32,000 nt of DNA. It comes from Pseudodesulfovibrio piezophilus C1TLV30. Lineage in GTDB: Bacteria; Desulfobacterota; Desulfovibrionia; Desulfovibrionales; Desulfovibrionaceae. Both the position numbers and the translations under genes were made by a program. The stretch lies in contig NC_020409.1 of assembly GCF_000341895.1 (NCBI RefSeq), forward strand, positions 2,190,001-2,222,000, read 5' to 3'. Below, one piece after another: positions 8,875 through 25,431 of the stretch (positions within the stretch are counted from its first letter, which is position 1; each line of letters begins with the position of its first letter). The notes beneath the pieces were generated by a model. It saw only the letters and a program-made list of their open reading frames with translations, was not told the DNA's origin and searched no databases.

Positions 8875-10419
8875 ATGCATTCCACGACACACAAGAACGG
8901 CCCGGTCCTGCTCATCAGCCATGAGCTGTCATATACCTTTCCGTTTTCCTATGCGTACCTTGCAGGAGCGCTCAAGGAAGCGGGATTTGTCGTGGAAGTG
9001 CTTTTCCGCCCTGGATTGCAGGCGGATTTTCCGAAATTCGTCAAGGAGATACTAGCGCGAAAACCACTCATGGTCGGCCTTGGCAATCTCTATCCCGAAC
9101 TCTTGCCTATCAAACGGCTCATAGAATTGATGGACACGGGCGGACGAGATTTCCCCATCGTCATAGGTGGGCAGATGGTCTCGCCCACCCCGGAATTCGC
9201 ACTCCAGATAACCGGAGCGGACATGGGTGTCATCGGTGAGGGAGAACTGACCATGACCAATCTGGCCCGCGCCCTGCGCGATGGCAAAGACCCGGCCTCA
9301 GTCAGCGGTATGGTTGTCAGAAATGAGCTGAATTTCATCAATACGGGTCCGGGGGAATACATCAAGGATCTGACCGAACTGCCCGAGATTCCCTTTGAAC
9401 TTTTCCCGGAAGAACAATGGCTCCAGGTCGGTAAGGTTTTCGTCAATAACCCGCAACCGCAGTGGCGATACGACGATCGGGTCATCTCCATCCACGGAGG
9501 GCGGGGATGTCCTTTCCGATGCAATTTCTGCTACCATCACAGCCGTATCCGATACCGCCGTATCGAAGACATGATGCAGGAAGCACAAGAATGGTTGAAG
9601 CGGTTTGACGGCAATATGCTCATGTTCAGCGATGATCTGGTGCTGGCCACGCCGAAGCGGGCCGAAAAGCTCGTGGAATTGGTCAGCGGCCTGGACCGCA
9701 AGGTTGATTACCGCATCACCTGCCGCTTCGATGTTCTCAGCAAAATAGACGATCACCTGCTGAGAGAAATGAAACGGACCGGATTGCGCATCATGGCTCT
9801 CGGCATCGAATCCGGCAGTCAACGAATCCTCGACATCATGGACAAACGCATCACCGTGGATCAGATCAGGGATGGAGTCCGACGGTTGGCGGAAAACGGC
9901 ATTTTCGCTTCAGGCAATTTCATGTTCGGCCAGATTTCAGAAACCCGCGAGGATGGAGACGCTTCCATAGCCCTGATGCAGGACCTGTGCAAACTGCACA
10001 AACATATTCAACTCTCCTCGACGATTGCCACGCCTTTCCCTGGCTCGGGGCTCTGTGACTATGCACTGGAAAAAGGACTGATAAAGGACCAGCAGGACCT
10101 GTTCGACCGCTTCAATTCCTTTGTGGATATCTCGGTCAACCTGTCAGACATGAGTGATGAAGAGCTCCTGGATCTAAAACGACAATTTGACACAGGATAC
10201 AGGGAAGCCCGAACCAATTCCTCAGGAGCCATGACAGCCATGGTCGAAAATTCCATACGCAGACTGGGCGGGCTGGATATGAAGCTGCGCCGACGCCTGT
10301 TCAGCGACCACCCAGAAACACCCCCATCCTGGTACAGCAACACCTATGACCTGGCACAACGAACACTGGGGAAATTGCAATTATCCCTACGTGGCATCTC
10401 TCGTTTTGAGACCATATAG
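8875..10419 (+). CDS. B12-binding-domain radical SAM enzyme (class B radical SAM methyltransferase-like)
   Basis: N-terminal Rossmann-like cobalamin-binding region ('PLMVGLG', 'PIVIGGQ'). Radical SAM motif 'GGRGCPFRCNFCYH' (CxxxCxxC, nt 9508-9531). 514 aa. Confidence 0.85.
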   Translation: MHSTTHKNGPVLLISHELSYTFPFSYAYLAGALKEAGFVVEVLFRPGLQADFPKFVKEILARKPLMVGLGNLYPELLPIKRLIELMDTGGRDFPIVIGGQMVSPTPEFALQITGADMGVIGEGELTMTNLARALRDGKDPASVSGMVVRNELNFINTGPGEYIKDLTELPEIPFELFPEEQWLQVGKVFVNNPQPQWRYDDRVISIHGGRGCPFRCNFCYHHSRIRYRRIEDMMQEAQEWLKRFDGNMLMFSDDLVLATPKRAEKLVELVSGLDRKVDYRITCRFDVLSKIDDHLLREMKRTGLRIMALGIESGSQRILDIMDKRITVDQIRDGVRRLAENGIFASGNFMFGQISETREDGDASIALMQDLCKLHKHIQLSSTIATPFPGSGLCDYALEKGLIKDQQDLFDRFNSFVDISVNLSDMSDEELLDLKRQFDTGYREARTNSSGAMTAMVENSIRRLGGLDMKLRRRLFSDHPETPPSWYSNTYDLAQRTLGKLQLSLRGISRFETI

Positions 10420-10890: not shown

Positions 10891-10906
10891 TGGCCTATAA
10901 TTTGCA
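10891..10906 (+). promoter_or_regulatory. Promoter candidate for operon B: sigma54-type -24/-12 element TGGCCT-ATAAT-TTGCA, which also embeds a perfect sigma70 -10 hexamer TATAAT (10896-10901)
   Basis: GG (10892-93) and GC (10904-05) have the exact -24/-12 spacing of the TGGCAC-N5-TTGCA consensus. It sits ~75 nt upstream of the 10980 start in an AT-rich spacer. The sigma70 reading has only a poor -35 (ACAACA). Confidence 0.45.
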
Positions 10907-10979
10907 CCAAATCACACCTGTGCCAAGCTCTTGAGCTTCACCCCGGAACATTTTAAGACCAAATGATTTATTGTAAAAG

Positions 10980-12236
10980 ATGACAATAAGATACACTACT
11001 CGATATCAGCCAGGCGACAACACAGGCCATGAATTGTCCCAAGCGGTCATTCTTGCCGGGGGACTTGGTACCCGTTTGCGTCCGTTTACCGAGAACAACC
11101 CCAAGCCAATGATTCCCGTGTGTGGCCGACCTTTTCTTGACCGGCTCTTGGAACAGGTCAGGGACCAAGGGATTTCCCGCGTCCTTCTGCTGCTCGGGTA
11201 TCTTCCAGACATCATCATGGACCACGTGGGCGACGGCAGTCGATTCGGACTGGAGGTGACCTATTCGATCTCGGATGTGAACAATGACACCGGCCGGCGC
11301 CTCAAGCTTGCCCGCCCCATGCTTGATGACCATTTCCTGCTCATGTACTGCGACAATTTTCTCCCCGTGGACGTGAGCGCCATGTGGCACCAGTACAAGC
11401 AGAGCAACACACGCTGCCAGATCACGGTCTATGCCAATGACGACGGCTACACGAAGGACAATCTTCGGCTCGATGCAGATCACATGGTCGAAACATACGA
11501 CAAGACCCGGCAGGCAGAGGATCTCGAAGGCGTGGACATAGGCTACGCCATCGTCGCCAGAAATGTCGTGGATGCCCTGCCTGAAGAGAATGTCAATTTC
11601 GAGGCCTGCGCCTATCCCGCATTAATCGAAGAACGCAGGTTGGGAGGGTTTCTGACCGGCCATCGGTACTACAGTATCGGCAGCCATGAGCGCCTGCCGC
11701 AGACGGAACGCTTTTTCGCACACCCCCGCGCCATCATTCTGGATAGGGACGGAGTGCTCAACGTCAAACAACCTCGCGCCTGCTATGTGACCACACCGGA
11801 GCAGTTCCAGTGGATTCCCGGCTCACGTGAGGCCGTCAAACTGTTCACCGATGCCGGGTACCTGATCTTTCTGATTACCAACCAGGCCGGAATCGCCCGA
11901 GGTGTCATGACCGAAGACGATTTGGAACGGGTCCATGCCACCATGCTGGCAGACCTGCGCGACATCGGGGCAAACATCGACGCCATCTATTACTGCCCCC
12001 ACGGATGGGATGAGGGATGTTCCTGTCGTAAGCCCGCGCCGGGTATGCTTTTCACCGCCCAACGGGAATTTGACCTGAATTTGCAAAAAGCCGTGTTCAT
12101 CGGCGACGACGAAAGGGATATGGAAGCCGGGCTCCGAGCCGGATGCCCTTCCATCCTAGTCACGGACGATATACCTCTGATCGAGGTGGCTCGCCACCTT
12201 CTGGAAAGCAACCGCAACCCACATGAGAAACGATGA
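10980..12236 (+). CDS. Bifunctional sugar-1-phosphate nucleotidyltransferase (HddC-like, D-glycero-D-manno-heptose-1-P guanylyltransferase) / D,D-heptose 1,7-bisphosphate phosphatase (GmhB, HAD family)
   Basis: N-terminal 'AVILAGGLGTRLRPFTENNPKPMIPV' NTP-transferase G-loop. C-terminal GmhB signatures 'ILDRDGVLN', 'ITNQAGIARG', the Zn-site 'YYCPHGWDEGCSCRKPAPGM', and 'FIGDDERDMEAG'. Confidence 0.85.
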   Translation: MTIRYTTRYQPGDNTGHELSQAVILAGGLGTRLRPFTENNPKPMIPVCGRPFLDRLLEQVRDQGISRVLLLLGYLPDIIMDHVGDGSRFGLEVTYSISDVNNDTGRRLKLARPMLDDHFLLMYCDNFLPVDVSAMWHQYKQSNTRCQITVYANDDGYTKDNLRLDADHMVETYDKTRQAEDLEGVDIGYAIVARNVVDALPEENVNFEACAYPALIEERRLGGFLTGHRYYSIGSHERLPQTERFFAHPRAIILDRDGVLNVKQPRACYVTTPEQFQWIPGSREAVKLFTDAGYLIFLITNQAGIARGVMTEDDLERVHATMLADLRDIGANIDAIYYCPHGWDEGCSCRKPAPGMLFTAQREFDLNLQKAVFIGDDERDMEAGLRAGCPSILVTDDIPLIEVARHLLESNRNPHEKR

Positions 12237-13291
12237 CCACCACCAATGACATCAAGACCGTTCTTGTCACCGGCAACCTCGGCTACATCGGCACGGTACT
12301 GACCCCGATCCTGTCCGACCTGGGCTATACCGTCCACGGACTCGATACCGAATTCTACGATGAAACCTGCCAACTTTATCCTTTCGCCTCCGGGGTCGAC
12401 AAACAGGTGCGCAAGGATGTGCGAGATGTGGAACCTGCCGATTTCGAGGGCGTGGACGCCGTGATCCACCTCGCGTCTCTCTCCAACGATCCGCTGGGCG
12501 AATTCGATCCATCTATCACCGAAGCAATCAACTACACCGCGACCATGCGCGTGGCCGACTGCGCCCGCACAGCCGGAGCCAGTCGATTCGTCTATGCGTC
12601 ATCCCAGAGCATGTACGGTGTTTCCGACACCAGTGTGGAATTGGACGAAGACGACTCCGAAAAAAATCCGGTAACCGCATATGCCAAGACCAAATGGCGC
12701 GCCGAATGCGAACTGCGCGATATGGTGGATGACCGGTTCCTGACGACTTTTTTTCGCCCCTCCACGGTCTTCGGAGCCAGCCCCAGACTGCGGTGCGATA
12801 TCGTTTTCAACAACCTCGTGGCCTGCGCGCACACCACCAACCGGGTGGAAATCATGAGCGACGGCACCCCATGGCGACCGGTCATCCACATCCGCGACGT
12901 TTGTTCGGCCTTTATTTCCGGTCTGACTGCCCCGCGTGAAACAGTGGCAGGACGCGCTTTCAACGTGGGCATCGAAAACGGTAACTTCACCGTGCGCGAT
13001 CTGGCCGAAGCCGCTCAACGGGCCGTGCCGGGCAGTGACCTCGTCTTCACGGGAGAACATGTCGATTCTCGCACCTATCGAGTGGGGTTCAATCGCATTC
13101 TGACCGAACTCAAGGGACACTTCATGCCCGAATGGGGGCTGGACCGGGGAGGGCAGGAACTCGTCGAACTATTCAAGCGTGTCTCCCTGACCGAAGAGGA
13201 TTTTCGCGGCGAAAAATGCATTCGCCTGATGCGTCTGAAAAATCTTATTTCACAAGGCCAATTGGACAGCAACCTGCGCTGGAAGGAGTAA
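12233..13291 (+). CDS. NAD(P)-dependent extended-SDR sugar epimerase/dehydratase
   Basis: 'VLVTGNLGYIGTVL' GxxGxxG and catalytic 'YAKTK' (YxxxK). ATGA overlap with the upstream gene. Confidence 0.8.
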   Translation: MTTTNDIKTVLVTGNLGYIGTVLTPILSDLGYTVHGLDTEFYDETCQLYPFASGVDKQVRKDVRDVEPADFEGVDAVIHLASLSNDPLGEFDPSITEAINYTATMRVADCARTAGASRFVYASSQSMYGVSDTSVELDEDDSEKNPVTAYAKTKWRAECELRDMVDDRFLTTFFRPSTVFGASPRLRCDIVFNNLVACAHTTNRVEIMSDGTPWRPVIHIRDVCSAFISGLTAPRETVAGRAFNVGIENGNFTVRDLAEAAQRAVPGSDLVFTGEHVDSRTYRVGFNRILTELKGHFMPEWGLDRGGQELVELFKRVSLTEEDFRGEKCIRLMRLKNLISQGQLDSNLRWKE

Positions 13292-13295
13292 CCCT

Positions 13296-14564
13296 GTGGA
13301 TGCCATTACCCACTGCCGTGGATGTGAGTGTTCGGATATCACCCCGTTTTTCGACCTCGGAGACCTGCCCTTGGCCAACGGATTGGTCTCTCCGGGCACT
13401 GCTGAACCGGACGCCCGATACCCACTCTCCCTGTCATTCTGCCCTGAATGCGGCCTGGTCCAACTGAATCACACCGCTGATCCCGAGGAGCTTTTCTCCC
13501 AGTATGTCTGGGTAACCGGGACATCGGCCACAGCCCAGAGCTATGCACGGCTTTTTCGAGACCGTGCTTTTGAACGAATCCATCGCACCGAAACGCCTCT
13601 GGCTCCAAAGGGCAGTTTCATTGTGGAAGTGGCCAGCAATGACGGCACCTTTCTCAGACCTTTTCAAGAAGCGGGAAGCAGGGTTCTCGGCATTGATCCG
13701 GCCAACAATATTGTCAAGGCCGCCAATGAACAGGGTATTCCCACCCGGTGCGATTTCTTCGGCGAGACCGTGGCCCGCGAGGTCGTGACCGAACACGGCC
13801 ACCCGGACATCGTCTTTGCCCGCAACGTCATTCCCCATGTGGCGAATCTGCACGACTTTGCCGAAGGCCTGCGGGTCTGTCTGGAGGGCGGCGGAATCCT
13901 GGCGGCGGAGGTGCACTACGCAAAAGAAATCCTGGAAAACCTACACTACGACTCCATTTATCACGAACACTTGTGTTATTTCACACTAAAAAGCTTCGAA
14001 GCCCTCCTGGCCCGACACGGTATGTTCGCCTTTGATCTCGAAAGCAGCCCCATCAGCGGCGGGTCCATCGTGGTCTACGCCTCCCTTGAAAAACGCCCTC
14101 GCTCGCATCAGCTCGACGCCTTTGCCAAAGCCGAAGCAGACTGCGCCACCAATGAATTGACGAGCTGGAACCAGTTTGCCGCCACAGCCATCGACCACCG
14201 GGACCACCTCGTGGACATGATCCATGATGCGCTGGACAGAGGTCATGTCCTCATCGGATACGGTGCTTCGGCTCGCAGCTCCACCCTACTCAACTTTTGC
14301 GGCATCGGCCCGGACATGCTCCCGGTCATAGCCGACCAAAGCCCCTTGAAGCACGGTTTGTTGACCGCCGGGAATCGCATCCCCATCGTTGCCCCGGACA
14401 CGGCCATGGAATCCATACCTGATACCGTGGTCATACTGGCCTGGAACTTTCTGGAAGAGATCGCGGGAATCCTGCGAGACACATACGGATTTACGGGAAA
14501 GATACTGGCGCCCCTGCCTTTTCCCCCCACCATGACCACAGCAGACGAGGTGTGCCGTGACTGA
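13296..14564 (+). CDS. NDP-sugar C-methyltransferase-like (Zn-ribbon + class I SAM MTase + C-methyltransferase C-terminal domain; TylCIII/Methyltransf_13/14 architecture)
   Basis: N-terminal Zn ribbon 'CRGCECSD..CPECGLVQL'. SAM domain 'IVEVASNDGTFL'. C-terminal 'LIGYGASARSSTLLNF'. GTG start 7 nt after GGAAGGAG. Confidence 0.8.
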   Translation: MDAITHCRGCECSDITPFFDLGDLPLANGLVSPGTAEPDARYPLSLSFCPECGLVQLNHTADPEELFSQYVWVTGTSATAQSYARLFRDRAFERIHRTETPLAPKGSFIVEVASNDGTFLRPFQEAGSRVLGIDPANNIVKAANEQGIPTRCDFFGETVAREVVTEHGHPDIVFARNVIPHVANLHDFAEGLRVCLEGGGILAAEVHYAKEILENLHYDSIYHEHLCYFTLKSFEALLARHGMFAFDLESSPISGGSIVVYASLEKRPRSHQLDAFAKAEADCATNELTSWNQFAATAIDHRDHLVDMIHDALDRGHVLIGYGASARSSTLLNFCGIGPDMLPVIADQSPLKHGLLTAGNRIPIVAPDTAMESIPDTVVILAWNFLEEIAGILRDTYGFTGKILAPLPFPPTMTTADEVCRD

Positions 14565-15024
14565 CCAGACCTGCGCCATCGATGGCGTGATCATCCGCCC
14601 CCTGCGCCGCATTCCGGACGAGCGAGGCACCATCATGCACGGCGTGCGTGACGACAATGCCCTGAGCCACATGGGAGAAGTCTACTTCAAACGGTTGTAC
14701 GCCGGGGTCGTCAACGGCTGGCACGCCCATGAAACATTGGAGCTGAACTACATCTGTCTGACCGGCATGATCAAACTGGTGCTCTATGACCTGCGCAAGG
14801 AATCCCCGACCAAAGGGGCATTGCAGGAGATATATTTTGGCGACGACAACTACTGCATGGTTCACGTGCCGCCCGGCATCGCCAATGGCTCCAAGGGCAT
14901 GGCCAAGCCATGGTCACTGATGTGCAACGTGGCATCCCATGCCCACGACCCCTCTCTCAAATATCGCAGGATTGATCCCCATTCGGGTGAAATTCCATAT
15001 GATTGGGCACGAAAGGACTTTTAA
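14557..15024 (+). CDS. RmlC-like cupin: NDP-4-keto-sugar 3,5-epimerase family
   Basis: 'PDERGTIMHG', 'NGWHAHE', 'KLVLYDLRKESPTKG', 'VHVPPGIANG' align with dTDP-4-dehydrorhamnose 3,5-epimerase motifs. The GTG start overlaps the upstream stop by 8 nt. Confidence 0.7.
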   Translation: MTDQTCAIDGVIIRPLRRIPDERGTIMHGVRDDNALSHMGEVYFKRLYAGVVNGWHAHETLELNYICLTGMIKLVLYDLRKESPTKGALQEIYFGDDNYCMVHVPPGIANGSKGMAKPWSLMCNVASHAHDPSLKYRRIDPHSGEIPYDWARKDF

Positions 15025-15026
15025 CC

Positions 15027-15908
15027 ATGCGGATTCTGGTGACCGGAGCAACCGGATTCATAGGGAGCCACCTCATCCCCCTGCTTCTCGGGCACGGGCA
15101 TGAGGTCATCGGTGTTTTCCGGCACACCGTGGGCACTGCCGCCAGTCCCATGATACGAGCGGACCTGAACTCCGGGGAAGCTGTCACACGGCTCATGGAA
15201 TCCAGCCGTCCCGATGCCCTGGTTCATCTGGCATGGGAAGGATTGCCCGATTATTCCTATGCCATGTCCCGTCGAAATCTCGATGCTTCCCTGCGACTGT
15301 TCGAGGCCGCCAACCGGGCAGAGGTCGACCATATAGTGAGTTCCGGCAGTTGTTGGGAATACGCCGCCCCGACCGGGAAAACAGCGGAGGACGCTCCCCT
15401 GGCCCATGACGCACCGTTTCAGGCGGCCAAGAATGCCGCGTTTTTCATGGGGAACGGACTCGCCACCGCGTCGGACAGTCGATTTCACTGGCTGCGCCTT
15501 TTTTTCGTTTACGGACCAGGCCAACGACACAGGTCCCTTCTGCCCCATGTGGTTGATACCCTGTCACGCGGGGAACAACCGGATATCCGATCGCCGCAGG
15601 CCATGCAGGATTTCATCCATGTCTCGGATGTCGCCCGCGCTTTTGCCATGGTGCTGGACACGCCTCCGCCAAACGGCGCATATAACGTCGGATCAGGCGA
15701 GGCCACCGCAGTGTGGCGTATGGCAGAGACTGCACGCAAAGCCCTCGGCATATCCGCTCCGCTCTATGATCCGATTCCTGTCGAGACCGACCACGATCCC
15801 TTCCGGGCAGACTGTACCCGGCTCGGCGAGGCCACGGGCTGGCATCCCGAGCTGAATCTGGAAAACGGCATAGCCCACTATGTCAAACAAAGGCGGCATA
15901 CGTCATGA
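15027..15908 (+). CDS. NAD(P)-dependent extended-SDR (NDP-sugar reductase/epimerase-like)
   Basis: 'MRILVTGATGFIGSHL' begins at ATG 15027, 2 nt after the upstream TAA. This start is preferred over the ORF-track start at 15003. The expected YxxxK position reads 'FQAAK' (see findings). Confidence 0.8.
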   Translation: MRILVTGATGFIGSHLIPLLLGHGHEVIGVFRHTVGTAASPMIRADLNSGEAVTRLMESSRPDALVHLAWEGLPDYSYAMSRRNLDASLRLFEAANRAEVDHIVSSGSCWEYAAPTGKTAEDAPLAHDAPFQAAKNAAFFMGNGLATASDSRFHWLRLFFVYGPGQRHRSLLPHVVDTLSRGEQPDIRSPQAMQDFIHVSDVARAFAMVLDTPPPNGAYNVGSGEATAVWRMAETARKALGISAPLYDPIPVETDHDPFRADCTRLGEATGWHPELNLENGIAHYVKQRRHTS

Positions 15909-16885
15909 TCATTTCACGGACCCCCATGCGGGTCAGCTTTGCTGGCGGCGGCTCAGACCTCTCGGTCTACTATCAACAGACTCCCGGCATCGTCCTGAGC
16001 ACTGCCATCGACCGCTATATATACATCACCGTCAATAAAATGTTCGACGACAAGATACGGGTCAGCTACTCCACCACCGAAATAGTGGATTGCGTGGACG
16101 ACCTGAAGCACAACATCATTCGCGAAGCGCTCAAGATTGTCGGCATCAGCCATGGTGTGGAAGTTGTCTACATGGGTGACATTCCCATCGGAAATGCAGG
16201 CATCGGACTTGGCTCGTCCAGCAGCCTGGCCGTGGGGGTGCTCAATGCGCTCTACGCCTTCAAGGGCATGCATGTCTCGGCCGAACGACTAGCCCGTGAA
16301 GCATGCCAGATCGAAATCGAAATTCTTGGCCACCCCATCGGCAAGCAGGATCAATATATCGCGGCCTACGGCGGCATCAACACCATCCAATTCAATCAGG
16401 ATGAAAGCGTGTTTGTGGACCCGGTCATCTTTACCAGACAGACCAAAGCCGCATTGCAAGGCAAGCTGATGATGTTCTTCACCGGATTGGTACGGATTTC
16501 CTCTGACATACTTGCTGAGCAAAAAGGGAACATCAGGGACAATAAGACTTTTCTCGACAAAATGGTCGGACTGGCGCGGGTAATGCGGGAAAGCCTCGTG
16601 GCCAATGAATTCGATCGGGTCGGCGAGATTCTTCATGCGGGCTGGATGTGCAAGCGCAACCTGGCCTCCACCATTTCATGCACATCCATCGATGAGGATT
16701 ACCAACGAGCCATGGACGCCGGAGCCATCGGAGGTAAGATTCTGGGTGCTGGCGGTGGCGGATTTCTGCTCTTCTACTGCGACGAGGAAAAACAGGCATC
16801 CGTGCGACAGGCTCTCTCCCATCTCAAGGAAACACCCTTCAATTTCGAACCGCAGGGCAGCAAGATCATCCACCTGAGCGACTAG
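15905..16885 (+). CDS. hddA: GHMP-family sugar kinase, D-glycero-D-manno-heptose 7-phosphate kinase (HddA)-like
   Basis: 'MIISRTPMRVSFAGGGSDL' N-terminus and the GHMP ATP motif 'GNAGIGLGSSSSLAVG'. ATGA overlap upstream. Confidence 0.8.
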   Translation: MIISRTPMRVSFAGGGSDLSVYYQQTPGIVLSTAIDRYIYITVNKMFDDKIRVSYSTTEIVDCVDDLKHNIIREALKIVGISHGVEVVYMGDIPIGNAGIGLGSSSSLAVGVLNALYAFKGMHVSAERLAREACQIEIEILGHPIGKQDQYIAAYGGINTIQFNQDESVFVDPVIFTRQTKAALQGKLMMFFTGLVRISSDILAEQKGNIRDNKTFLDKMVGLARVMRESLVANEFDRVGEILHAGWMCKRNLASTISCTSIDEDYQRAMDAGAIGGKILGAGGGGFLLFYCDEEKQASVRQALSHLKETPFNFEPQGSKIIHLSD

Positions 16886-16899
16886 CCCGGAGACGACGT

Positions 16900-18069
16900 A
16901 TGACGACGCCCACATGCCATACCACCCATATGGGATGCCCCTGTTGCCACGGAAGCGATATTATCCGAGACCTCTGGGTCCGGGAACGGACTCCCGCGCT
17001 GAATAATCGTCTCCATGCCACACGAGAACAGGCACTGGCCGCCCCTCTGGGGCGTGTTGCACTGGCGTTGTGCCGAAGCTGCGGCTTTGTCTTCAATCAC
17101 GATTTTGATGACGCTCTCGTCAGATATGACAAAGACTACAACAGCAGTCGCAATGATTCCCCCGCCTATCAGGCTCACCTGGCTGAAACCGCGGATTTCA
17201 TCGCGGCAAGTCTGCCCCGAAAAGCCGGACACCCCGGCAGAGTCCTGGAGATAGGCTGTGGCGATGGCCAATTCCTACGGTACCTGCATGAGAAGGGGAT
17301 GGATGTTTGCGGCTACGACCCAGCCCTGCCCACACACCCTCCATGCCCGAACGGCATGGAACTGCATGGAACATGCTTCGCACCGGAGAGCCGTGAGGAA
17401 CGATACGACGCCCTGGTTCTGCGTCACGTCCTGGAGCACATCCCCACTCCCGGGCTTTTCCTCCGGGAACTGCTGTCCGCACCGAGTCTGGAGTCAAGCA
17501 TGGTCGCCATTGAAGTCCCTGACCTGCAATGGATTCTTGACCACCATGCCCCCTATGACCTGACCTATGAGCACTGCAATTATTTCAGACACGAATCACT
17601 CGTCAATTTAATGAACGAGCTTGGTTTTTCCGAGTATTCTTTTCAGCGAGGATATGGGGGACAGTATCTGATATCAATATTTAAAAGGAACAATTCAAGC
17701 ATAATACGACAAATTACACCTTCTGAAGAAACGATTTTTTCCGCAATGGACACAGCACAAGAACGTTTATTGCATGAATTATTTTCCCATGGCCCTGTCT
17801 CAATCTGGGGCGCATCAGGCAAAGGGGTGCTTTTGACCGCCTCCCTGCCTGATTCCACACTGGGACAAGTCAAAAGGGTCATTGACGTGGACCGGAAGAA
17901 GCAGGGGTTGTTCCTGCCCGGCACCGGACTTGAAGTCTGCCCGCCCGATGTCCTGACCTCGGTCATTGAACCGGGTAGAGTCGTGGTGATGAACCCGGTG
18001 TATACCGATGAGATATCACGGATGCTTGAAGCCATGGGTGTCAAAACGGATGTGACTTGCATAGCTTGA
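16900..18069 (+). CDS. Second Zn-ribbon class I SAM methyltransferase with C-methyltransferase-type C-terminal domain (paralog of 13296-14564)
   Basis: 'CPCCHGSD..CRSCGFVFN' Zn ribbon, 'VLEIGCGDGQFL' SAM motif I, and C-terminal 'SIWGASGKGVLL'. Confidence 0.7.
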   Translation: MTTPTCHTTHMGCPCCHGSDIIRDLWVRERTPALNNRLHATREQALAAPLGRVALALCRSCGFVFNHDFDDALVRYDKDYNSSRNDSPAYQAHLAETADFIAASLPRKAGHPGRVLEIGCGDGQFLRYLHEKGMDVCGYDPALPTHPPCPNGMELHGTCFAPESREERYDALVLRHVLEHIPTPGLFLRELLSAPSLESSMVAIEVPDLQWILDHHAPYDLTYEHCNYFRHESLVNLMNELGFSEYSFQRGYGGQYLISIFKRNNSSIIRQITPSEETIFSAMDTAQERLLHELFSHGPVSIWGASGKGVLLTASLPDSTLGQVKRVIDVDRKKQGLFLPGTGLEVCPPDVLTSVIEPGRVVVMNPVYTDEISRMLEAMGVKTDVTCIA

Positions 18070-18076
18070 GGATCAG

Positions 18077-19255
18077 ATGAAAAAATACTTTATTGATGAC
18101 AACACCTGCACCGCCTACAAGCTGATCCTGAGTCGAGTGGCCAGCTATTACGATGCCAACGGTTGGCAACTTGTTCGAAGCGCCGCCGATGCCGATCTCG
18201 CCATTGCCGGATGTTGCGCAGCCTTCCACAGTCTGGAGGAAGAAGCACTGAACATCGCCAGGAGCGTGGTGAATGAAGGGGCCGGAGAAACAGTCCTCTT
18301 CGGCTGCCTGACCACGGTTTCCCCGGAACAGGCCAAGGCACTGGGAGTGGATCATGTCATTGCTTCGCCGCAATGGAAACGACTGACTGATTTCGTTACC
18401 AACCCGGTGGTGGAACTGGATGCGATTCCGCCATCCACCGAGTTCCGGCTTCAGGAAGAATACCGCATATACGATCCGGGCAAACAGTTTGTCCTGCTAC
18501 AGACTGGGTGTTCCTCGGATTGCCCCCACTGCCCGCACAAACTCGGCATCGGCCCCTTGAAAAGTGTTCCCATGCAAACTCTCCTTGATCAATGTGAAAC
18601 GCTCGTTAAAAACGGCGCGCACACCATCGTGCTGACCGGAAACGACACCGGATCATGGGGAACGGATACGGGCGAGGGGACTTACGTGGAGCTTCTCCGC
18701 GCCATCCTTGATTTTCCGGTCAAGCTGCATCTGGCCCAGATCAACCCCGACTGGGTCGCCCTCTATAGTGAAGCGCTTCTCGATCTGCTGACCGATGACC
18801 GGATCAAGGATTTCCAGACACTGATTCAGACCACCAGCCCGCGTCTGCTTGAAATAATGAATCGCGCTCCCGTCGTCCTTGAACTGGAAGACTTCTTCCT
18901 GCGTCTGCGGGAACTCCGTCCCGATATTTTCCTGCGTACGGACCTGATCATCGGCTATCCGACTTCAACAGAAGAAGAAGACCGGGCCACCGTGGCCTTC
19001 ACGGCCCGCTTTTTCGATGAAGTAGCCGTCCATGCCTACGAACGGTTCCCACATACGCGCATCGAAACCATGGGGCTGCCCTTCCACTCCCGCGAGGTCA
19101 TCGTCGGGCGGGTGGATGAAGCTGTGAACACACTGGAAAAGAGCGGTACCATTCTCGTCCACCGTGGCGGACAGGTCTATGAAACCATGGTCGCCATCGA
19201 ACAACCGAAAAAAACGATACAAACCGATCGGGAACGATCCCCGGGTCAACAATGA
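18077..19255 (+). CDS. MiaB/RimO-like radical SAM enzyme (methylthiotransferase architecture)
   Basis: N-terminal domain with three spaced Cys (C11, C46/C47, C77) like the UPF0004 auxiliary-cluster domain. Radical SAM 'CSSDCPHC' at nt 18509-18532. 392 aa. Confidence 0.75.
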   Translation: MKKYFIDDNTCTAYKLILSRVASYYDANGWQLVRSAADADLAIAGCCAAFHSLEEEALNIARSVVNEGAGETVLFGCLTTVSPEQAKALGVDHVIASPQWKRLTDFVTNPVVELDAIPPSTEFRLQEEYRIYDPGKQFVLLQTGCSSDCPHCPHKLGIGPLKSVPMQTLLDQCETLVKNGAHTIVLTGNDTGSWGTDTGEGTYVELLRAILDFPVKLHLAQINPDWVALYSEALLDLLTDDRIKDFQTLIQTTSPRLLEIMNRAPVVLELEDFFLRLRELRPDIFLRTDLIIGYPTSTEEEDRATVAFTARFFDEVAVHAYERFPHTRIETMGLPFHSREVIVGRVDEAVNTLEKSGTILVHRGGQVYETMVAIEQPKKTIQTDRERSPGQQ

Positions 19256-20190
19256 ACGGCACTCTCCCCAAAATAGAATGGAATGATGAGGTCCTGATCC
19301 CAAGTCACGTCAATATCGAGACACTCTTCGGCTGCAATGCGCACTGCACCATGTGCATCATTGACCAACCCAGCAAGCGACGAAAGGGAGTGATGAAGGA
19401 ACCTCTGTTTCGACATATCATCGACTCCCTCAAACCCCATCGCACCCAGATTCAGAAACTGGACCTCTTCGCCCTGGGCGAACCACTACTCGACCCGGAT
19501 ATCATGGCGCGTATCCGCTATGCCAAGCAGCAGGGCTTCACCGGTATGGCCATCTCGACCAACGCGGACCTGCTGACTGAGCACATGGCGAAGGAACTGC
19601 TCGACACCGGCATAGAAACAGTCATATTCAGCATCGACGGTATTGATGCACCAACCCATGAAGGTATCCGCCGAGGGGTTTGCTTCGAACGTGTCGTCGC
19701 CAATGCCGAGCGAATCATCGCCATGCGCGATCAAGGGAATTTTCCGACTCGTTTTGTTGTTCGTTTCATTCGCCAAGAGTGCAACCGGGATCAATGGCAA
19801 CCATTCGAGCAATACTGGAATGCCCGTCTCTCTGCGGACCGGAACGATCTGCTCCTGAGTTACAACATCCACACCTGGGGTGGGGCCGTCGACTCCAAAG
19901 AAAACGTTCTGGGAGTCTCCCAACGCGATGAAACCATAGAAAAAAGTCCCTGCCATCACATCTTCAACCAGATGATTATTCTGGCGGATGGTACGGTGCC
20001 CCTCTGTTGTGAAGATTTCCTCAATGCAGACATCGCAGTAGGCAATGTATCCGAAACCGATCCCATTGCCGTCTTCAACTCGCCCAGGATGCAGCACCTG
20101 AGAAAAATGCATGTAAACGGAGTCAAGAGCACGATCCCCATGTGCGGCCAATGCACCGTGCTGTATAGTGAAGCGGAGCGACAAGGATAA
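19252..20190 (+). CDS. Radical SAM enzyme with SPASM/twitch-type C-terminal domain (distant paralog of 21-1100)
   Basis: 'FGCNAHCTMC' (nt 19333-19356), 'LGEPLLDP', C-terminal 'SPCHH..DGTVPLCCEDF..IPMCGQCTV'. ATGA overlap upstream. Confidence 0.85.
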   Translation: MNGTLPKIEWNDEVLIPSHVNIETLFGCNAHCTMCIIDQPSKRRKGVMKEPLFRHIIDSLKPHRTQIQKLDLFALGEPLLDPDIMARIRYAKQQGFTGMAISTNADLLTEHMAKELLDTGIETVIFSIDGIDAPTHEGIRRGVCFERVVANAERIIAMRDQGNFPTRFVVRFIRQECNRDQWQPFEQYWNARLSADRNDLLLSYNIHTWGGAVDSKENVLGVSQRDETIEKSPCHHIFNQMIILADGTVPLCCEDFLNADIAVGNVSETDPIAVFNSPRMQHLRKMHVNGVKSTIPMCGQCTVLYSEAERQG

Positions 20191-20196
20191 CCACTC

Positions 20197-21321
20197 ATGC
20201 ATGACCAACTGACACTCATACTCCCTATCCGCGACCGAATTCACTTCATGCGCCGATGGTTTCAGCAGGCGAGAACATTTTCGTTTCCATGGAGAATCCT
20301 GGTCGCCGATGGAAGCCAGGGCGCCCAGAACTCGGATTTTTTCGCCTGCCCGGAACATTTTCAAGGGCTGCATGTGGAACATCAGAAGTACGAGACACCG
20401 GATGATTACGGCGGATTCATGGAGCGTATCTCCCTTTCACTGGATAAAGTGGAAACCCCCTATGTGCTCATTGTTGCTGATGATGACTTTTTCCTGCCAT
20501 CCGGTATTCTGCGCAGCCTGCGATTTCTGGAAAAAAATCCTGACTACATGGCGGCGAGAGGGGAGATCCTTGATTTCACCATTCCCGGAAAAAATGGTCA
20601 GAATGCCTATGGCGACATGGAATTCTATTTTTCGGAACATTACAATGTACCGTCGAGAAACGCTGACAACGTCTATACCCGTTTGGCCCAGCAGTGTGAC
20701 AAATATTGTTGTGCCCTGACAACTGTCCAACGCACGGCCCAGGCCCGCAAACGGTTCAGCTACCTGCGGCACATCAATGCCAGGGAAACGTGGCTTCCTC
20801 TGATGTTCGATGATTTCGGCCTGCTGGCTCAAGGGAAAACCCACCATGGGAAGCATCTCTATGGACTGAAACAGACCAACGCCATCGGCAGTGAAGCCCA
20901 TGCCATCTATGAAAAGGACCCGAGCATCCTCGACTGGATGACCCGTCCGGGGTGGTCCGAGGAAATGAGTAAACTGGTCCCCTATGTCACACGGGAAATA
21001 GCCGAGGCTCAGAATATTCCCTACGCAACGGCCCATGCCGAATTCAAACGGTTATTCATCGCCCGCTATCTGTCACGGCTGATCAGGGTCAAAGGAAAAG
21101 GCGAAGGCACGGCCCTTCCAGGCACCATTGCCCGCAAATTCGAAAAATGGCGGCATGCTCTTAAGAGAAAAATAATATTCAAAAGTAGATACTTGCGTGC
21201 TCAAGCAGCACTCAAACGCTTTCAAAAATCCGAGGAAGTATCCGAATTACAGACGATCCTCGATATCTGCCGCACCCCGTATGACCCGGCAGGAAAAGCA
21301 CCTCACGGAGAAGCACAATGA
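20197..21321 (+). CDS. Hypothetical protein with GT-A (GT2-like) N-terminal half and a long basic C-terminal tail
   Basis: 'LTLILPIRDR', 'ILVADGS', 'VLIVADDDFF' (DxD-like) recall GT2 motifs. The C-terminal 'RKFEKWRHALKRKIIFKSRYLRAQAALKRF' is Lys/Arg-rich. I cannot name a family confidently. Confidence 0.45.
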   Translation: MHDQLTLILPIRDRIHFMRRWFQQARTFSFPWRILVADGSQGAQNSDFFACPEHFQGLHVEHQKYETPDDYGGFMERISLSLDKVETPYVLIVADDDFFLPSGILRSLRFLEKNPDYMAARGEILDFTIPGKNGQNAYGDMEFYFSEHYNVPSRNADNVYTRLAQQCDKYCCALTTVQRTAQARKRFSYLRHINARETWLPLMFDDFGLLAQGKTHHGKHLYGLKQTNAIGSEAHAIYEKDPSILDWMTRPGWSEEMSKLVPYVTREIAEAQNIPYATAHAEFKRLFIARYLSRLIRVKGKGEGTALPGTIARKFEKWRHALKRKIIFKSRYLRAQAALKRFQKSEEVSELQTILDICRTPYDPAGKAPHGEAQ

Positions 21322-22508
21322 AAATTGGAGCACTGATCCCCGCCCGAAACGGATCCAAACGAATCAAGAAAAAGAATATCAAGATGCTGGGAGACCGTCC
21401 GCTGATCTGCTGGACCATTGATACTCTGCTCCAATCAGCTGTCTTCGACACCATCACAGTCTCCACCGAAAGTGGCGAAGTCGCCAGAGTCGTCAACGAA
21501 TACTATCCGGGCGACACTGTTCGGGTTCTGGATCGTCCCGATTCATTGGCACACGACGATGCCCCTCTTTCCGGGGTTATCGAGCACTACCTCTCAGGCA
21601 ACGACTATGAATACTTTGGCCTGTTCATGCCGACTTATCCATTCAGAAAAGTGGAACAACTGAGAGAAGCTGCCTACGCCATACAGACACGCTATCCCTG
21701 GCGCGTGCTCTCCAAAAGCAGCCGTCAGTATGCTTCAATGGATTACTATTACCCCCATGAAGCAGGCGTCAAGCGGGTCTTCCGGCTCCACCCCATGTTC
21801 TGCCCCTCCTCCAACTCTACCTATGTCTTCTCACACCGGAACTGCTATGATAACAGATGGATGCAATACGGCATCAGCGCGGCTGAACGCCTCTACACCA
21901 TGCAGGTGGACCATATTGAAAGCGTTGACATCGACACCCCTGAGGATTTTGCCAAAGCACAGATGATCGCCGAGGGGAGACCTCCGGTGGTTCGGGCACC
22001 GGTCAGCACCCGGTTCGGCGACTGGGTCACCGTGACTCCGAAGGGAGTTGATGCGGAAAAATTCATGCATTTCGTGGGGCAGGAACGGCTCGCCGACACC
22101 AAAAAGCCGCTTCTGATTCTGGGCACCGCCACGCCCCCTCTCAACTTTTACACGATTATGAACAATGCGGTGCGCATGTATTACATGGATCGAGAGGCCG
22201 CCACCTGCTTTCAGTCCGACAAGGTCAACCTGACAGGCAATTCCGCATACATCCCGAAGCATTTCCTGCATGACCAGCATTACCGGATCATGCGCGTCCC
22301 TGAACTGGGGAAAGACGCGGATCACAAGGTCTGGTCACACGCTGAACAGCGCGAAATGGGCTGGCCTCACGGCGGTTTTCACAATGACAGCCAAGGACTT
22401 TACTTTGGTTCCGAATATGGTGATGACGTCCTGCCAAATGACCGGGTCATCTGGCAGGAGGAGCTTGCCAAGCAGGATTTCTATCTCGATCCCATCGAGT
22501 ACCTCTGA
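21318..22508 (+). CDS. Acylneuraminate/ulosonic-acid cytidylyltransferase-like domain (CTP_transf_3, NeuA/PseF/LegF-type) fused to a ~170-aa C-terminal domain of unknown function
   Basis: 'MKIGALIPARNGSKRIKKKNIKMLGDRPLICWTI' is the hallmark N-terminus of CMP-sugar synthetases. Residues ~225-396 show no motif I recognise. ATGA overlap upstream. Confidence 0.75.
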   Translation: MKIGALIPARNGSKRIKKKNIKMLGDRPLICWTIDTLLQSAVFDTITVSTESGEVARVVNEYYPGDTVRVLDRPDSLAHDDAPLSGVIEHYLSGNDYEYFGLFMPTYPFRKVEQLREAAYAIQTRYPWRVLSKSSRQYASMDYYYPHEAGVKRVFRLHPMFCPSSNSTYVFSHRNCYDNRWMQYGISAAERLYTMQVDHIESVDIDTPEDFAKAQMIAEGRPPVVRAPVSTRFGDWVTVTPKGVDAEKFMHFVGQERLADTKKPLLILGTATPPLNFYTIMNNAVRMYYMDREAATCFQSDKVNLTGNSAYIPKHFLHDQHYRIMRVPELGKDADHKVWSHAEQREMGWPHGGFHNDSQGLYFGSEYGDDVLPNDRVIWQEELAKQDFYLDPIEYL

Positions 22509-22535
22509 TTCTTTTTGTGATTTGACAACAAAAAC

Positions 22536-22569
22536 ATGCCCCCGAAAGGATATTTGCTTTCAGGGGCAT
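22536..22569. terminator. Bidirectional hairpin terminator between convergent operons
   Basis: ATGCCCCCGAAAG (22536-22548) pairs with CTTTCAGGGGCAT (22557-22569): 13-bp stem with one mismatch and an 8-nt loop. It is flanked by A-rich sequence upstream and T-containing sequence downstream, between stops at 22508 (+) and 22602 (-). Confidence 0.6.
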
Positions 22570-22601
22570 AATTCGCTGTTCAGGGAAGCCCCTCCCAAGG
22601 C

Positions 22602-23628: not shown

Positions 23629-25431
23629 TCAGGGAGTGACGCCGCGAGACAGCCGCCGACACCCTTTCTCCGCCCTGGTGAGCAACATCAGAAATTCATC
23701 ACTCATCCGCCTGACATGATCGAAATAATACCGAAGGCCCTCGACCCGAGCCACATTGTCTTCGAGAAAAACCTTGCCGTAAAAATACCTGTTGTCAAAA
23801 GATTGGTAGCGTTCGACGAGATAGGAAATATTATTCTTGTCAAACTCAAGCAAAGCAGCAAAACCTCGGGTCAGAACCACTTCATCCGCTTCCTGCAAAA
23901 CCCCGGCACTCAGATTCCTGACGGTGGACCAGTTGACCTTCTCATTATTGATGAAGGGAAGCACCATGTCGGGTCGTACTTCGGGAGGAGCGGTACGAAA
24001 AAGGTCAGCCACTTCCCTCGTGACTCTGGCATCTGGCAACTCCGGCTCACTTTCGTAGCGAATCCCCTGCCCATACAGGATGCTGCTTTTCGACGTATTG
24101 ATGCACTCGATTCCTGACAGACGAATGACTTCAGCCAGCCAAAGGGCGGCGTCCCGAAAGTTCAATGTTGTATAACTGGTGACACCCTGCTCCGTATGGA
24201 CCGGATAGAGATGAGGGAATCGGGAGGTCTCTCCGGAAAGAGAGCCGTTATCGCGAAAATTCATGGTCCCCTTCGCATAATCCAATCCCCATGGGTTGGG
24301 AGACGAGAGCTGGGCTCCCACGAAAATGCATTTGTCACATCCAAGCAAACAGGCCAGGGAAAAAGCCGTGGAAATCACCGAGCCATGCAACTCCAGATCA
24401 CCCTTGTCGCCAAATAGCACAGGTAAATAATCGCCAAACAGGTACTTCTGACGGAAGCGGTCTCCGCCGAGATCGGAAAAAAGGTGCCCGACAAGGATCG
24501 TCTCGTGAATCCTGGGGATGTTTTTGAAGACCTCGCCCGATGCCGTGGACGCATCATTGATAACGACAAAGTGTGGTTTGATCTTTGCCTCGACCATGGG
24601 CTTGACCGCGTTATTCACACAAATGATCACGGCGCGGTTACGATTCGCCCGGATATATTCCAGTTTCTCGTTCAGGTCCGGTCCGGCTGCCACCAGAATG
24701 GCCGGAAATCCCTTGAGTGCGTTCTCCAGATGCATCACACCTTGGCAGGTCTGGTATGCGATGAGGTTTTCATACACATGTAACTGCTGATCGAACATCA
24801 AATCCCGCTTGATGGGACGAAAAGGAATGGAGCGCAAAAAAAACTGGCTCCCCACCGGATAGATGACGTGCCTATAATGGAGTATTTCTATATACTCTAT
24901 GACCTTCGCGGCCCATTTCCCATAGAGTTCACGAATCCGCTCCGTCTGAAAAAAGACCGGCGTTCCCTGCTCGAAAAGCTCCTTGGGCAGCATCTCCTGC
25001 AAAGCGGGATTAAAAGAATACGGTGCCCCGGTGAAAAAGAAGACTCCACCTCTGTTCAGACGAGAAAGCTGGGCACGGTCGAGATACTCCACAAGCACTC
25101 GGTCATCGGGTTCAAAGACGAGTACGATGGTGTCGGGCTTGTCCAGACAGCGGTCAAGCTCCTCGGAATCGGCACTCCCCAGGAAAACCGTGAACCGGGT
25201 CTTGTCTAGGGCTTCACCGACCGTGATTTCCCCGTCAAAATGCAGATAAGCCGGTTTTTCGGGATTCTGAAAGGGAAATCGATATTTTGGATTCTCATAC
25301 AACGACACCTGGTTGTGCCGGGAAAAGGCATGAGGACCATGATCGGCCGCCCCGTTACCATGGGTCGAGACATCTTCACCCCGGCACAGAATACCGAGTT
25401 CCACCAATGCCGCAATTTTACTGTTTTCCAT
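23629..25431 (-). CDS. maf: Motility-accessory-factor (Maf)/DUF115 (MptE-like) family putative protein glycosyltransferase
   Basis: 600 aa. Central motifs 'ILVAAGPDLNE', 'VIICVNNAVKPMVEAKIKPHFVVINDAS', 'HGSVISTAFSLACLLGCDKCIFVGAQLS' correspond to the G-x-GPSL / PD..v..D / G-SV..A..lA..lG signature of DUF115/Maf proteins. Confidence 0.7.
   Translation of the reverse strand: MENSKIAALVELGILCRGEDVSTHGNGAADHGPHAFSRHNQVSLYENPKYRFPFQNPEKPAYLHFDGEITVGEALDKTRFTVFLGSADSEELDRCLDKPDTIVLVFEPDDRVLVEYLDRAQLSRLNRGGVFFFTGAPYSFNPALQEMLPKELFEQGTPVFFQTERIRELYGKWAAKVIEYIEILHYRHVIYPVGSQFFLRSIPFRPIKRDLMFDQQLHVYENLIAYQTCQGVMHLENALKGFPAILVAAGPDLNEKLEYIRANRNRAVIICVNNAVKPMVEAKIKPHFVVINDASTASGEVFKNIPRIHETILVGHLFSDLGGDRFRQKYLFGDYLPVLFGDKGDLELHGSVISTAFSLACLLGCDKCIFVGAQLSSPNPWGLDYAKGTMNFRDNGSLSGETSRFPHLYPVHTEQGVTSYTTLNFRDAALWLAEVIRLSGIECINTSKSSILYGQGIRYESEPELPDARVTREVADLFRTAPPEVRPDMVLPFINNEKVNWSTVRNLSAGVLQEADEVVLTRGFAALLEFDKNNISYLVERYQSFDNRYFYGKVFLEDNVARVEGLRYYFDHVRRMSDEFLMLLTRAEKGCRRLSRGVTP

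Follow-up and report, generated by a model that had tools for sequence, protein, structure and literature searches.

A TRAM-less methylthiotransferase-family radical SAM enzyme in a putative nucleotide-heptose operon of Pseudodesulfovibrio piezophilus

In canonical methylthiotransferases (MTTases) the C-terminal residues form a TRAM barrel, and TRAM docks the RNA or protein substrate. These radical S-adenosylmethionine (SAM) enzymes (SFLD subgroup 12) are defined by three domains, TRAM included, and their known substrates are only tRNA (A37) and ribosomal protein S12; every characterised enzyme with the MTTase N-terminal domain and its three-cysteine site is a methylthiotransferase (PMC10702137). 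The RadicalSAM.org resource contains an MTTase subgroup with three N-terminal cysteines, for which no sugar-linked function is described (PMC9477430). The described systems considered here are the tRNA ms2t6A enzymes MtaB and e-MtaB (CDKAL1-type; TIGR01579 and TIGR01578; PDB 9a6d), the tRNA ms2i6A enzyme MiaB (TIGR01574; PDB 7mjv) and RimO, the beta-methylthiotransferase of S12 Asp88 (TIGR01125; PDB 4jc0), which is a precedent both for methylthiolation of an sp3 C-H position and for a substrate other than RNA. The literature was searched for MTTase homologues in heptose, sugar or glycan pathways, and for radical SAM enzymes of Desulfovibrio flagellin glycans, and no precedent was found; the rimO-ngt operon of Actinobacillus was rejected as a precedent, since it carries a genuine RimO and is not comparable. 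Described here is a gene of the MTTase lineage at positions 18077-19255 (forward strand) of a 32,000-nucleotide stretch of contig NC_020409.1 of Pseudodesulfovibrio piezophilus C1TLV30, referred to below as the window. Its product is best explained, with a probability that we put at about 0.45, as a two-[4Fe-4S] enzyme of the MTTase lineage that has lost TRAM and would have been recruited to tailor a nucleotide-activated branched heptose by methylthiolation.

The open reading frame starts with ATG, 4 nt downstream of the Shine-Dalgarno sequence GAGGA, and encodes 392 amino acids; the protein is 100% identical to the NCBI entry 'radical SAM protein [Pseudodesulfovibrio piezophilus]'. Pfam Radical_SAM was matched by residues 141-305 (E=1.1e-10), and the MTTase models of NCBIfam were aligned from residue 3 to about residue 334, with E-values from 1.6e-38 to about 1e-20. 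The best of these matches was the e-MtaB-type model TIGR01578 (E=1.6e-38, 132.6 bits), followed by TIGR00089 (128.4 bits), MtaB (116.7 bits), RimO (100.6 bits) and MiaB (71.5 bits). Every one of these scores (72-133 bits) lies far under the curated cutoffs of 251-357 bits (251 for TIGR00089, 315-357 for the equivalogs), and the alignments end at about profile position 330-340 of 420-430, ahead of the TRAM region. In a sequence search of the PDB, RimO 4jc0 was the best match (E=8.9e-22), and MiaB 7mjv was also recovered (E=1e-12). A structure was predicted with AlphaFold2 on the clade alignment (mean predicted local distance difference test score, pLDDT, 90.9; predicted template modelling score, pTM, 0.88) and compared with the PDB by Foldseek. 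MtaB 9a6d, MiaB 7mjv with related entries, and RimO 4jc0 were the top matches (template modelling (TM) score 0.75-0.76, E=1e-24 to 1e-20); B12-dependent radical SAM enzymes followed at a TM score of about 0.61, and lipoyl synthases (LipA) and AprD4 ranked lower. With E=1e-38 for the family models and E=1e-24 in Foldseek, the match to the MTTase family is far above chance.

Six cysteines were invariant in an alignment of 26 relatives (36-82% identity): C11, C47 and C77 near the N-terminus, and C145, C149 and C152 in the motif CSSDCPHC, which had already been recognised in the preliminary description of the window, made from the sequence alone. That description had also listed C11, C46/C47 and C77 as three spaced cysteines matching the auxiliary-cluster site of MTTases. 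The match holds: C47 pairs with Cys46 of RimO, and C11 and C77 with the first and third ligands of MiaB, so that a test chosen beforehand as one on which the proposal could fail was passed with an aligned and invariant triad. C46 is not a ligand, its column being variable (C/T/V/S/A/L) among the 26 clade members. At the C11 column, Cys was found in all sister, shelf (both groups are defined below) and canonical sequences with a residue there, five sequences being gapped. Beyond the two triads no cysteine is conserved in the clade (C174 varies among the 26 relatives), and there are therefore exactly two three-cysteine sites, as in MTTases. The UPF0004 domain named for the N-terminus is supported by the NCBIfam alignment from residue 3 and by Pfam PF00919 in most homologues; in the protein itself the Pfam match stays below threshold (residues 18-89, E=0.0015, 18.9 bits against a gathering cutoff of 27). 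Two other identities were tried and rejected. A B12-binding radical SAM enzyme (SFLD subgroup 5) was excluded by the lack of PF02310, by only 25 bits to TIGR04013, by the TM score of about 0.61 against 0.75 and by the N-domain with its cysteine triad; a SPASM or twitch enzyme was excluded by the lack of a conserved cysteine after C152 and of a PF13186 match.

The canonical SAM-core motifs are kept (Q251-x-x-S254...M261-x-R263 and T288-D-x-x-x-G293-x-P295). Invariant residues specific to the clade are R130, P153-H154, R287, H362 and K378. Positions 153 and 154, directly after the CX3CX2C motif, hold P-H in the clade and I/V followed by V in canonical MTTases, and position 287 holds R as against S/T; an HxGGQ motif in the tail is present in essentially all clade members and in no canonical MTTase. 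These residues are mostly basic (R130, H154, R287, H362 and K378), and their pattern would fit an anionic nucleotide-diphosphate substrate.

The segment after the core had been taken for the place where TRAM sits. No match to PF01938 or PF18693 (TRAM and TRAM_2) was obtained in the protein. Its chain runs on for 37 residues past the core, where the median for canonical MTTases is 74, and this stretch was modelled as one short strand and two helices (pLDDT about 67). The segment is therefore a short clade-specific tail and not TRAM. A degenerate TRAM after residue 355 was ruled out by the length, the secondary structure and the absence of a hidden Markov model (HMM) signal. Of the methylthiotransferase architecture first proposed, the N-domain and the radical SAM core thus stand, and the third domain is missing.

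A word-indexed search with the protein across 5.8 billion proteins recovered a rare clade of about 58 clusters (90% identity), made up of roughly 390-aa proteins at 208-894 bits; TRAM-bearing MiaB, MtaB and RimO come next, at no more than 85 bits. An exhaustive profile search of 1.84 billion representatives gave about 16 full-length representatives above 320 bits and, below them, a wide shelf at 190-250 bits; at E<=1e-30 there were 2,640 proteins, the clade included. An alignment-based scan of a genome collection found relatives in 44 loci. Sister-clade genes (34-39% identical) were seen in Cyanobacteriota, Planctomycetota, Thermodesulfobacteriota, another Pseudodesulfovibrio, Altiarchaeota and Methanomicrobia. 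A neighbour-joining tree with 200 bootstraps was built from 78 sequences covering the core clade, the sister groups, the shelf, named MiaB, MtaB and RimO proteins and archaeal Methanolapillus MTTases. The core clade and the core plus sister grouping were each recovered in 200/200 bootstraps, and the split of all TRAM-less from all canonical MTTases in 193/200. The protein lies outside the MiaB, MtaB, e-MtaB and RimO clades; being a separate lineage, it does not fall inside the genuine RimO/MiaB clade, and the earlier proposal comes through the phylogenetic check that had been suggested for it.

The N-terminal MTTase three-cysteine site, the CX3CX2C site, the MTTase fold, the absence of TRAM and the separate clade are established features, as is the genomic tie to NDP-sugar tailoring. 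With MtaB and e-MtaB the protein shares the N-domain with three cysteines, the CX3CX2C core and the fold (TM score 0.76), but it has no TRAM, reaches 117-133 bits where the cutoffs are 315-357, forms part of a distinct clade, carries P-H after the SAM motif and the HxGGQ tail, and is encoded in a sugar operon instead of a housekeeping context. The auxiliary cysteines align with those of RimO, whereas the TRAM-type C-terminal domain of RimO is lacking, the score is 100.6 bits against a cutoff of 357, and the RimO clade does not include the protein. With MiaB the fold (TM score 0.75) and the first auxiliary cysteine (C11) are shared and the alignment reaches the first TRAM strand, but about 20 residues of the protein extend into the stretch in which TRAM of MiaB starts, and its score is 71.5 bits against a cutoff of 355. 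N-domain, radical SAM core and fold are thus those of the family, and TRAM, score and clade are not; for this reason the protein is not a member of any characterised MTTase family.

An ordinary housekeeping methylthiotransferase of tRNA (MiaB/MtaB) or S12 (RimO), present in a sugar operon by accident, would account for the homology to MiaB, MtaB and RimO and for the 'MiaB' label that some metagenome pipelines attach to the clade. Against it are scores of 72-133 bits where the cutoffs are 251-357, the missing TRAM, the position outside all canonical clades, a sugar context that is conserved across phyla and absent at canonical loci, and translational coupling in the operon. On these comparisons a housekeeping tRNA or S12 role is effectively excluded, and its chance is negligible. 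As to the labels, clade members are named 'tRNA A37 methylthiotransferase MiaB' by JGI pipelines, and one NCBI metagenome entry of the clade is named 'tRNA-2-methylthio-N(6)-dimethylallyladenosine synthase'; on TRAM-less proteins such names look like over-annotations.

The shelf proteins (P0101-P0230) form a large, apparently uncharacterised TRAM-less group of the MTTase family, and all ten of ten sampled were MTTase-family proteins without TRAM. Like the protein in the window they are 360-430 aa long, keep both cysteine triads and group with its clade (193/200), but their scores against the clade profile are 190-250 bits, neither the HxGGQ tail nor P153, H154 and R287 is present in them, and their tails have a median length of 15 aa. 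Two larger proteins stand out: P0099 (1245 aa), one of those sampled, in which a MurB-like UDP-N-acetylmuramate-dehydrogenase domain is fused to two TRAM-less MTTase-like modules, a fusion that favours a sugar-related role, and P0105 (1019 aa), with several radical SAM modules in series.

The gene lies within a co-directional operon at 10980-22508 that ends in a hairpin and is given as comprising 12 genes, 11 of which are named (Table 1). Its stop codon overlaps, as ATGA, the start of the radical SAM/SPASM gene downstream, so the coupling seen in the preliminary description is confirmed. The product of the gene directly upstream, described there as C-methyltransferase-like, does match Methyltransf_23 and Methyltransf_14 and, in a sequence search of the PDB, shows distant homology to the D-mycarose 3-C-methyltransferase 4rv9 (E=1.6e-9). 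The same search returned BtrN and BlsE, two radical SAM enzymes that act on carbohydrates, as the nearest solved relatives of the SPASM partner.

Table 1. Features of the window, with positions counted from its first nucleotide (SDR, short-chain dehydrogenase/reductase; NDP, nucleoside diphosphate).
Feature	Position	Strand	Basis
Gene of the TRAM-less MTTase-family radical SAM enzyme	18077..19255	+	Open reading frame, NCBIfam, AlphaFold2, Foldseek
N-terminal MTTase (UPF0004-like) domain, aa 1-97, flavodoxin-like, with predicted auxiliary [4Fe-4S] site	18077..18367	+	Pfam, NCBIfam, modelled alternating strand/helix
C11 codon, first auxiliary-cluster ligand (predicted)	18107..18109	+	Invariant; aligns with first Cys of MiaB 7mjv
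C47 codon, second auxiliary-cluster ligand (predicted)	18215..18217	+	Invariant; aligns with Cys46 of RimO 4jc0
C77 codon, third auxiliary-cluster ligand (predicted)	18305..18307	+	Invariant; aligns with 'GCL' Cys of RimO and MiaB
Radical SAM partial TIM-barrel core, about aa 136-335	18482..19081	+	Pfam Radical_SAM; modelled secondary structure
Radical SAM CX3CX2C motif CSSDCPHC (C145, C149, C152), then clade-specific P153-H154	18509..18532	+	Invariant
Short C-terminal tail, aa 356-392, in place of TRAM, with K378	19142..19252	+	No TRAM match; length; model
H362-x-G-G-Q366, clade-specific tail motif	19160-19174	+	Alignment
Sugar-1-phosphate nucleotidyltransferase fused to GmhB-type heptose-bisphosphate phosphatase (HddC-GmhB fusion), first operon gene	10980..12236	+	NCBIfam, Pfam; conserved in core loci
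SDR, 352 aa, probably NDP-heptose C4-dehydrogenase or dehydratase giving a 4-keto intermediate	12233..13291	+	PDB 6vo6 E=6.6e-37
NDP-sugar 3-C-methyltransferase (Methyltransf_13/23/14)	13296..14564	+	Pfam; D-mycarose 3-C-methyltransferase 4rv9 E=3.5e-75, TcaB9 5e-60
RmlC-like cupin epimerase/isomerase	14557..15024	+	Pfam dTDP_sugar_isom; PDB 3ejk 4e-18
SDR, 301 aa, probably C4-ketoreductase	15003..15908	+	Pfam; PDB MoeE5, GDP-6-deoxy-4-hexulose reductases
GHMP sugar kinase (HddA-like)	15905..16885	+	NCBIfam HddA E=1.9e-49, below cutoff
C-methyltransferase-like protein, Cys-rich N-terminus, Methyltransf_23 and Methyltransf_14; directly upstream of the MTTase-family gene	16900..18069	+	Pfam
Radical SAM/SPASM enzyme, translationally coupled downstream of the MTTase-family gene	19252..20190	+	Pfam Radical_SAM and SPASM; ATGA overlap
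Glycosyltransferase (TIGR04440 domain)	20197..21321	+	NCBIfam 213.9 bits against cutoff 70
CMP-sugar-type cytidylyltransferase (PseF-like), 396 aa, last operon gene	21318..22508	+	Pfam CTP_transf_3 residues 5-221; NCBIfam PseF 4e-24
Hairpin, 14-bp stem and T-run, between convergent cytidylyltransferase and GT2 genes; likely terminator	22535..22570	.	Terminator scan
B12-binding radical SAM enzyme, same island, about 8 kb upstream of the MTTase-family gene	8875..10419	+	Pfam, NCBIfam
Maf/PseD-like MptE-domain protein, 600 aa (motility-associated-factor type glycan transferase)	23629..25431	-	Pfam MptE-like 1.2e-24; NCBIfam PseD domain 1.5e-6

Because of the partner identities obtained in the PDB sequence searches, the scaffold made by the operon is most likely an NDP-heptose, probably GDP-linked, that would first undergo C4 oxidation, 3-C-methylation, epimerisation and reduction and would then be tailored further. 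The starting compound for the NDP-heptose, probably GDP-heptose, would be sedoheptulose-7-phosphate, on which the kinase and the phosphatase-nucleotidyltransferase fusion would act. Oxidation at C4 would fall to the SDR matching 6vo6, which we take to be Cj1427. The chemistry of Cj1427 is described in PMC10680097. Methylation at C3 by the TylC3/TcaB9-like enzyme, epimerisation and reduction would then follow, and further tailoring would be shared by the C-methyltransferase-like protein, the MTTase-family enzyme and the SPASM enzyme, with the B12-binding radical SAM enzyme encoded elsewhere in the island.

The same cassette was found, usually in the same order, at ten independent core-clade loci from Desulfobacterota, Omnitrophota, 'Xenobiia', Chloroflexota and metagenomes (the window; L001/L003, 'Xenobiia'; L004=L012 and L013, Omnitrophota; L009; L011, Chloroflexota; L056-L059). 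Its order is NTP-transferase (often HAD-fused, sometimes with a SIS isomerase), SDR, C-methyltransferase, RmlC-like protein, SDR, GHMP kinase, at times a CmcI/TylF methyltransferase, C-methyltransferase-like protein, MTTase-like protein, SPASM radical SAM enzyme, B12 radical SAM enzyme and glycosyltransferase. A tblastn matrix covering part of the core loci gave orthologues with identities of 43-65% for the kinase, 46-60% for the 352-aa SDR, 43-49% for the C-methyltransferase, 33-37% for the C-methyltransferase-like protein and 43-50% for the SPASM enzyme. The C-methyltransferase-like gene is present at all core loci and directly 5' of the MTTase-like gene at all but L009 and L056; a Radical_SAM and SPASM gene was called at every one save the truncated L059. 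The B12 radical SAM gene comes right after the SPASM gene at most core loci, with none in the region covered at L058 and L009, and the MTTase-like, SPASM and B12 genes are contiguous at most related loci but not in the window.

Where the flanking sequence was long enough, most sister-clade loci have neighbours of the C-methyltransferase type, SDR neighbours or both (Cyanobacteriota, Altiarchaeota, Planctomycetota, Thermodesulfobacteriota and the other Pseudodesulfovibrio). Most sister-clade loci, archaeal ones included, are nucleotide-sugar operons of the deoxy or branched-sugar kind, with varying mixtures of NTP-transferase, 4,6-dehydratase-type SDR, RmlC, reductase, C-methyltransferase and TylF genes; the three annotated in detail (L014, L016 and L023) all combine an NTP-transferase, a 4,6-dehydratase-type SDR and a C-methyltransferase, two of them with an RmlC-like epimerase. 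No cassette-type neighbour was detected at L015. Cassette neighbours were found at none of the 31 canonical MTTase loci analysed. The earlier inference of a sugar context, drawn from the window, is much strengthened by the ten core loci and by the prevalence of nucleotide-sugar operons in the sister clade. Some sister-clade operons contain thiamine diphosphate (ThDP)-dependent or transketolase-type enzymes, which suggests two-carbon branched sugars. At L016, an Altiarchaeota metagenome-assembled genome, the sister gene stands between split transketolase halves (9098-9955 and 11179-12093), and at L005 a ThDP enzyme of acetolactate-synthase type (453-2180) belongs to the operon of the sister gene; both arrangements resemble YerE-type two-carbon branching of 4-keto sugars.

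Since the protein has no RNA-binding domain and its relatives are found in nucleotide-sugar tailoring operons of distant bacteria and archaea, it probably acts on a sugar; the MTTase family would thereby gain a new class of substrate. We judge it likely that the protein is a two-cluster MTTase-lineage enzyme dedicated to a nucleotide-sugar or glycan pathway. In this proposed role it resembles BtrN, BlsE, AprD4, DesII and GenK, radical SAM enzymes that act on sugars or aminocyclitols in sugar-tailoring clusters; unlike it, those are SPASM/twitch or B12-binding enzymes, lack the MTTase N-domain and form no C-S bond.

A destination for the glycan is suggested by the flanks of the operon. A GT2 gene and then the gene of the Maf/PseD-like MptE-domain protein follow on the opposite strand, which suggests that the island decorates flagellin or another glycoprotein; there is no flagellin gene in the window. 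Upstream of the operon are an asparagine-synthase-type amidotransferase, a CDP-glycerol glycerophosphotransferase, glycosyltransferases, a TylF O-methyltransferase and the B12-binding radical SAM enzyme. NeuB, CMP-transferase or Maf genes at several core loci fit a glycan of flagella or of a surface glycoprotein, and motility or chemotaxis genes flank some loci. The Maf/PseD-like factor and the motility and chemotaxis genes are also what a RimO-like methylthiotransferase of a protein or peptide might be expected to have nearby: flagellin or a glycoprotein could be the substrate, the sugar genes being neighbours by virtue of a common target protein, and RimO demonstrates that the family can act on protein. 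RimO, however, has a TRAM-type domain, as all canonical MTTases do, and the clade has none; the most constant neighbours are cytoplasmic NDP-sugar enzymes, with no candidate substrate protein among them, and the sister-clade loci have no Maf or flagellar genes. A protein substrate is accordingly thought very improbable.

By analogy with the characterised MTTases, we infer that the chemistry with the strongest support is methylthiolation of a GDP-heptose derivative, and that the reaction is methylthiolation specifically we hold to be a little short of an even chance. By homology with MiaB and RimO, a sulfide bound by the auxiliary cluster at its unique iron would receive a methyl group from a first SAM, and cleavage of a second SAM at the radical SAM cluster would yield a 5'-deoxyadenosyl radical. 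This radical would abstract hydrogen at an unactivated carbon of the sugar, leaving a carbon radical to capture the CH3S- group. A methylthio-heptose would result and be built into a surface glycan, probably that of flagella or of another glycoprotein. More tentatively, the protein may be the first carbohydrate methylthiotransferase, placing -SCH3 on an unactivated carbon of a GDP-activated 3-C-methyl-heptose, and founder of a TRAM-less small-molecule clade of >2,000 clusters at 50% identity.

Several points weigh against methylthiolation of the heptose. To our knowledge no methylthio-heptose has been reported from any glycan, and literature searches yielded none. Radical SAM enzymes may carry an auxiliary cluster without transferring sulfur, and the loss of TRAM together with the replacement of I/V-V by P-H after the CX3CX2C motif could signal a changed chemistry. 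The substrate could be the free NDP-sugar, a lipid-linked glycan or a protein-linked glycan. One sister-clade context (L006-L008) carries no sugar-tailoring genes and has a Zeta-toxin/AAA_33 kinase-domain protein and small unannotated open reading frames in their place; Zeta toxins phosphorylate UDP-GlcNAc, and a link to nucleotide sugars is therefore still possible there. At L006 the sister protein (P0057) adjoins a 661-aa Zeta_toxin/AAA_33 protein at 782-2767, and the arrangement is alike at L007 and L008. Finally, no recurrent sulfur-mobilisation gene (cysteine desulfurase, rhodanese or ThiS-like) was found in the core neighbourhoods with gene calls; as far as we know, canonical MTTases need no sulfur-delivery gene nearby either.

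The main rival keeps the fold and the sugar substrate and dispenses with sulfur: the auxiliary cluster would serve as electron acceptor or substrate anchor, as in BtrN, DesII, AprD4 and MoaA, and the NDP-heptose would undergo radical dehydrogenation, epimerisation, dehydration, deoxygenation or C-C rearrangement. Radical SAM enzymes with auxiliary clusters do act on carbohydrates, and BtrN and BlsE are the nearest solved relatives of the SPASM partner; the unusual residues beside the CX3CX2C motif, the lost TRAM, the lack of sulfur-supply genes near the gene at core loci and the lack of a methylthio-sugar precedent in the literature point the same way. On the other side, the characterised enzymes with the same three-cysteine N-domain are all methylthiotransferases (PMC10702137), the triad of the N-domain is absolutely conserved, and the SPASM enzyme and the SDRs of the cassette could already cover redox steps and epimerisation. 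We consider non-sulfur chemistry rather unlikely.

Sulfur might also be inserted without its methyl group, giving a thiol, thioether or thiosugar, and a neighbouring SAM methyltransferase, possibly the C-methyltransferase-like protein, would then methylate the sulfur or a carbon. LipA and BioB insert cluster-derived sulfur without methylation, and LipA structures are among the lower Foldseek matches; a methyltransferase gene is almost always directly 5' of the MTTase-like gene and is sometimes translationally coupled to it. That methyltransferase, however, is homologous to sugar 3-C-methyltransferases and not to S-methyltransferases, and canonical MTTases, whose SAM-binding core is conserved here, methylate the sulfur themselves. 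Thiolation alone is therefore regarded as improbable, and methylthiolation of the branched heptose remains the preferred reading.

The clade keeps the sulfur-transfer machinery of MTTases, has lost the domain that docks macromolecules and occurs mostly inside nucleotide-sugar tailoring operons of bacteria and archaea. It offers a concrete route to testing whether MTTase chemistry reaches small-molecule carbohydrates, for which the likely precursor is accessible with known enzymes (GDP-heptose, Cj1427-type oxidation and TcaB9-type 3-C-methylation). The cassette points to an uncharacterised sugar pathway in which one heptose would be acted on by as many as three radical SAM enzymes (the MTTase-like, the SPASM and the B12 enzyme). 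On the more tentative reading given above, the product would be a methylthio-sugar of a kind so far undescribed, carried by a surface or flagellar glycan, and TRAM-less MTTase homologues would act on small molecules and not on RNA or protein. The automated 'MiaB' names on the proteins of the clade appear to be wrong.

Further observations concern the operon and the island. The operon is preceded by a 560-bp intergenic gap (10419-10980) that coincides with the lowest GC content of the window (0.469 for 10001-11000). When this gap was scanned for sigma-70 promoters, no site was found on the + strand and two weak sites were found on the - strand, so that the heptose operon may use another sigma factor. 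About 175 C-terminal residues of the cytidylyltransferase are without a family match; the same form of the enzyme (397 aa) is encoded at 13325-14518 of L058, the closest related locus. At 1588-4724 a glutamine-hydrolysing asparagine-synthase-type amidotransferase, with an XrtA/PEP-CTERM-like score, is translationally adjacent to the CDP-glycerol glycerophosphotransferase, a pair that hints at amidated and glycerol-phosphate-decorated components in the glycan of the island. Four radical SAM genes are gathered in this one glycan island: an unclassified gene at 21-1100, the B12-binding enzyme, the MTTase-family enzyme and the SPASM enzyme.

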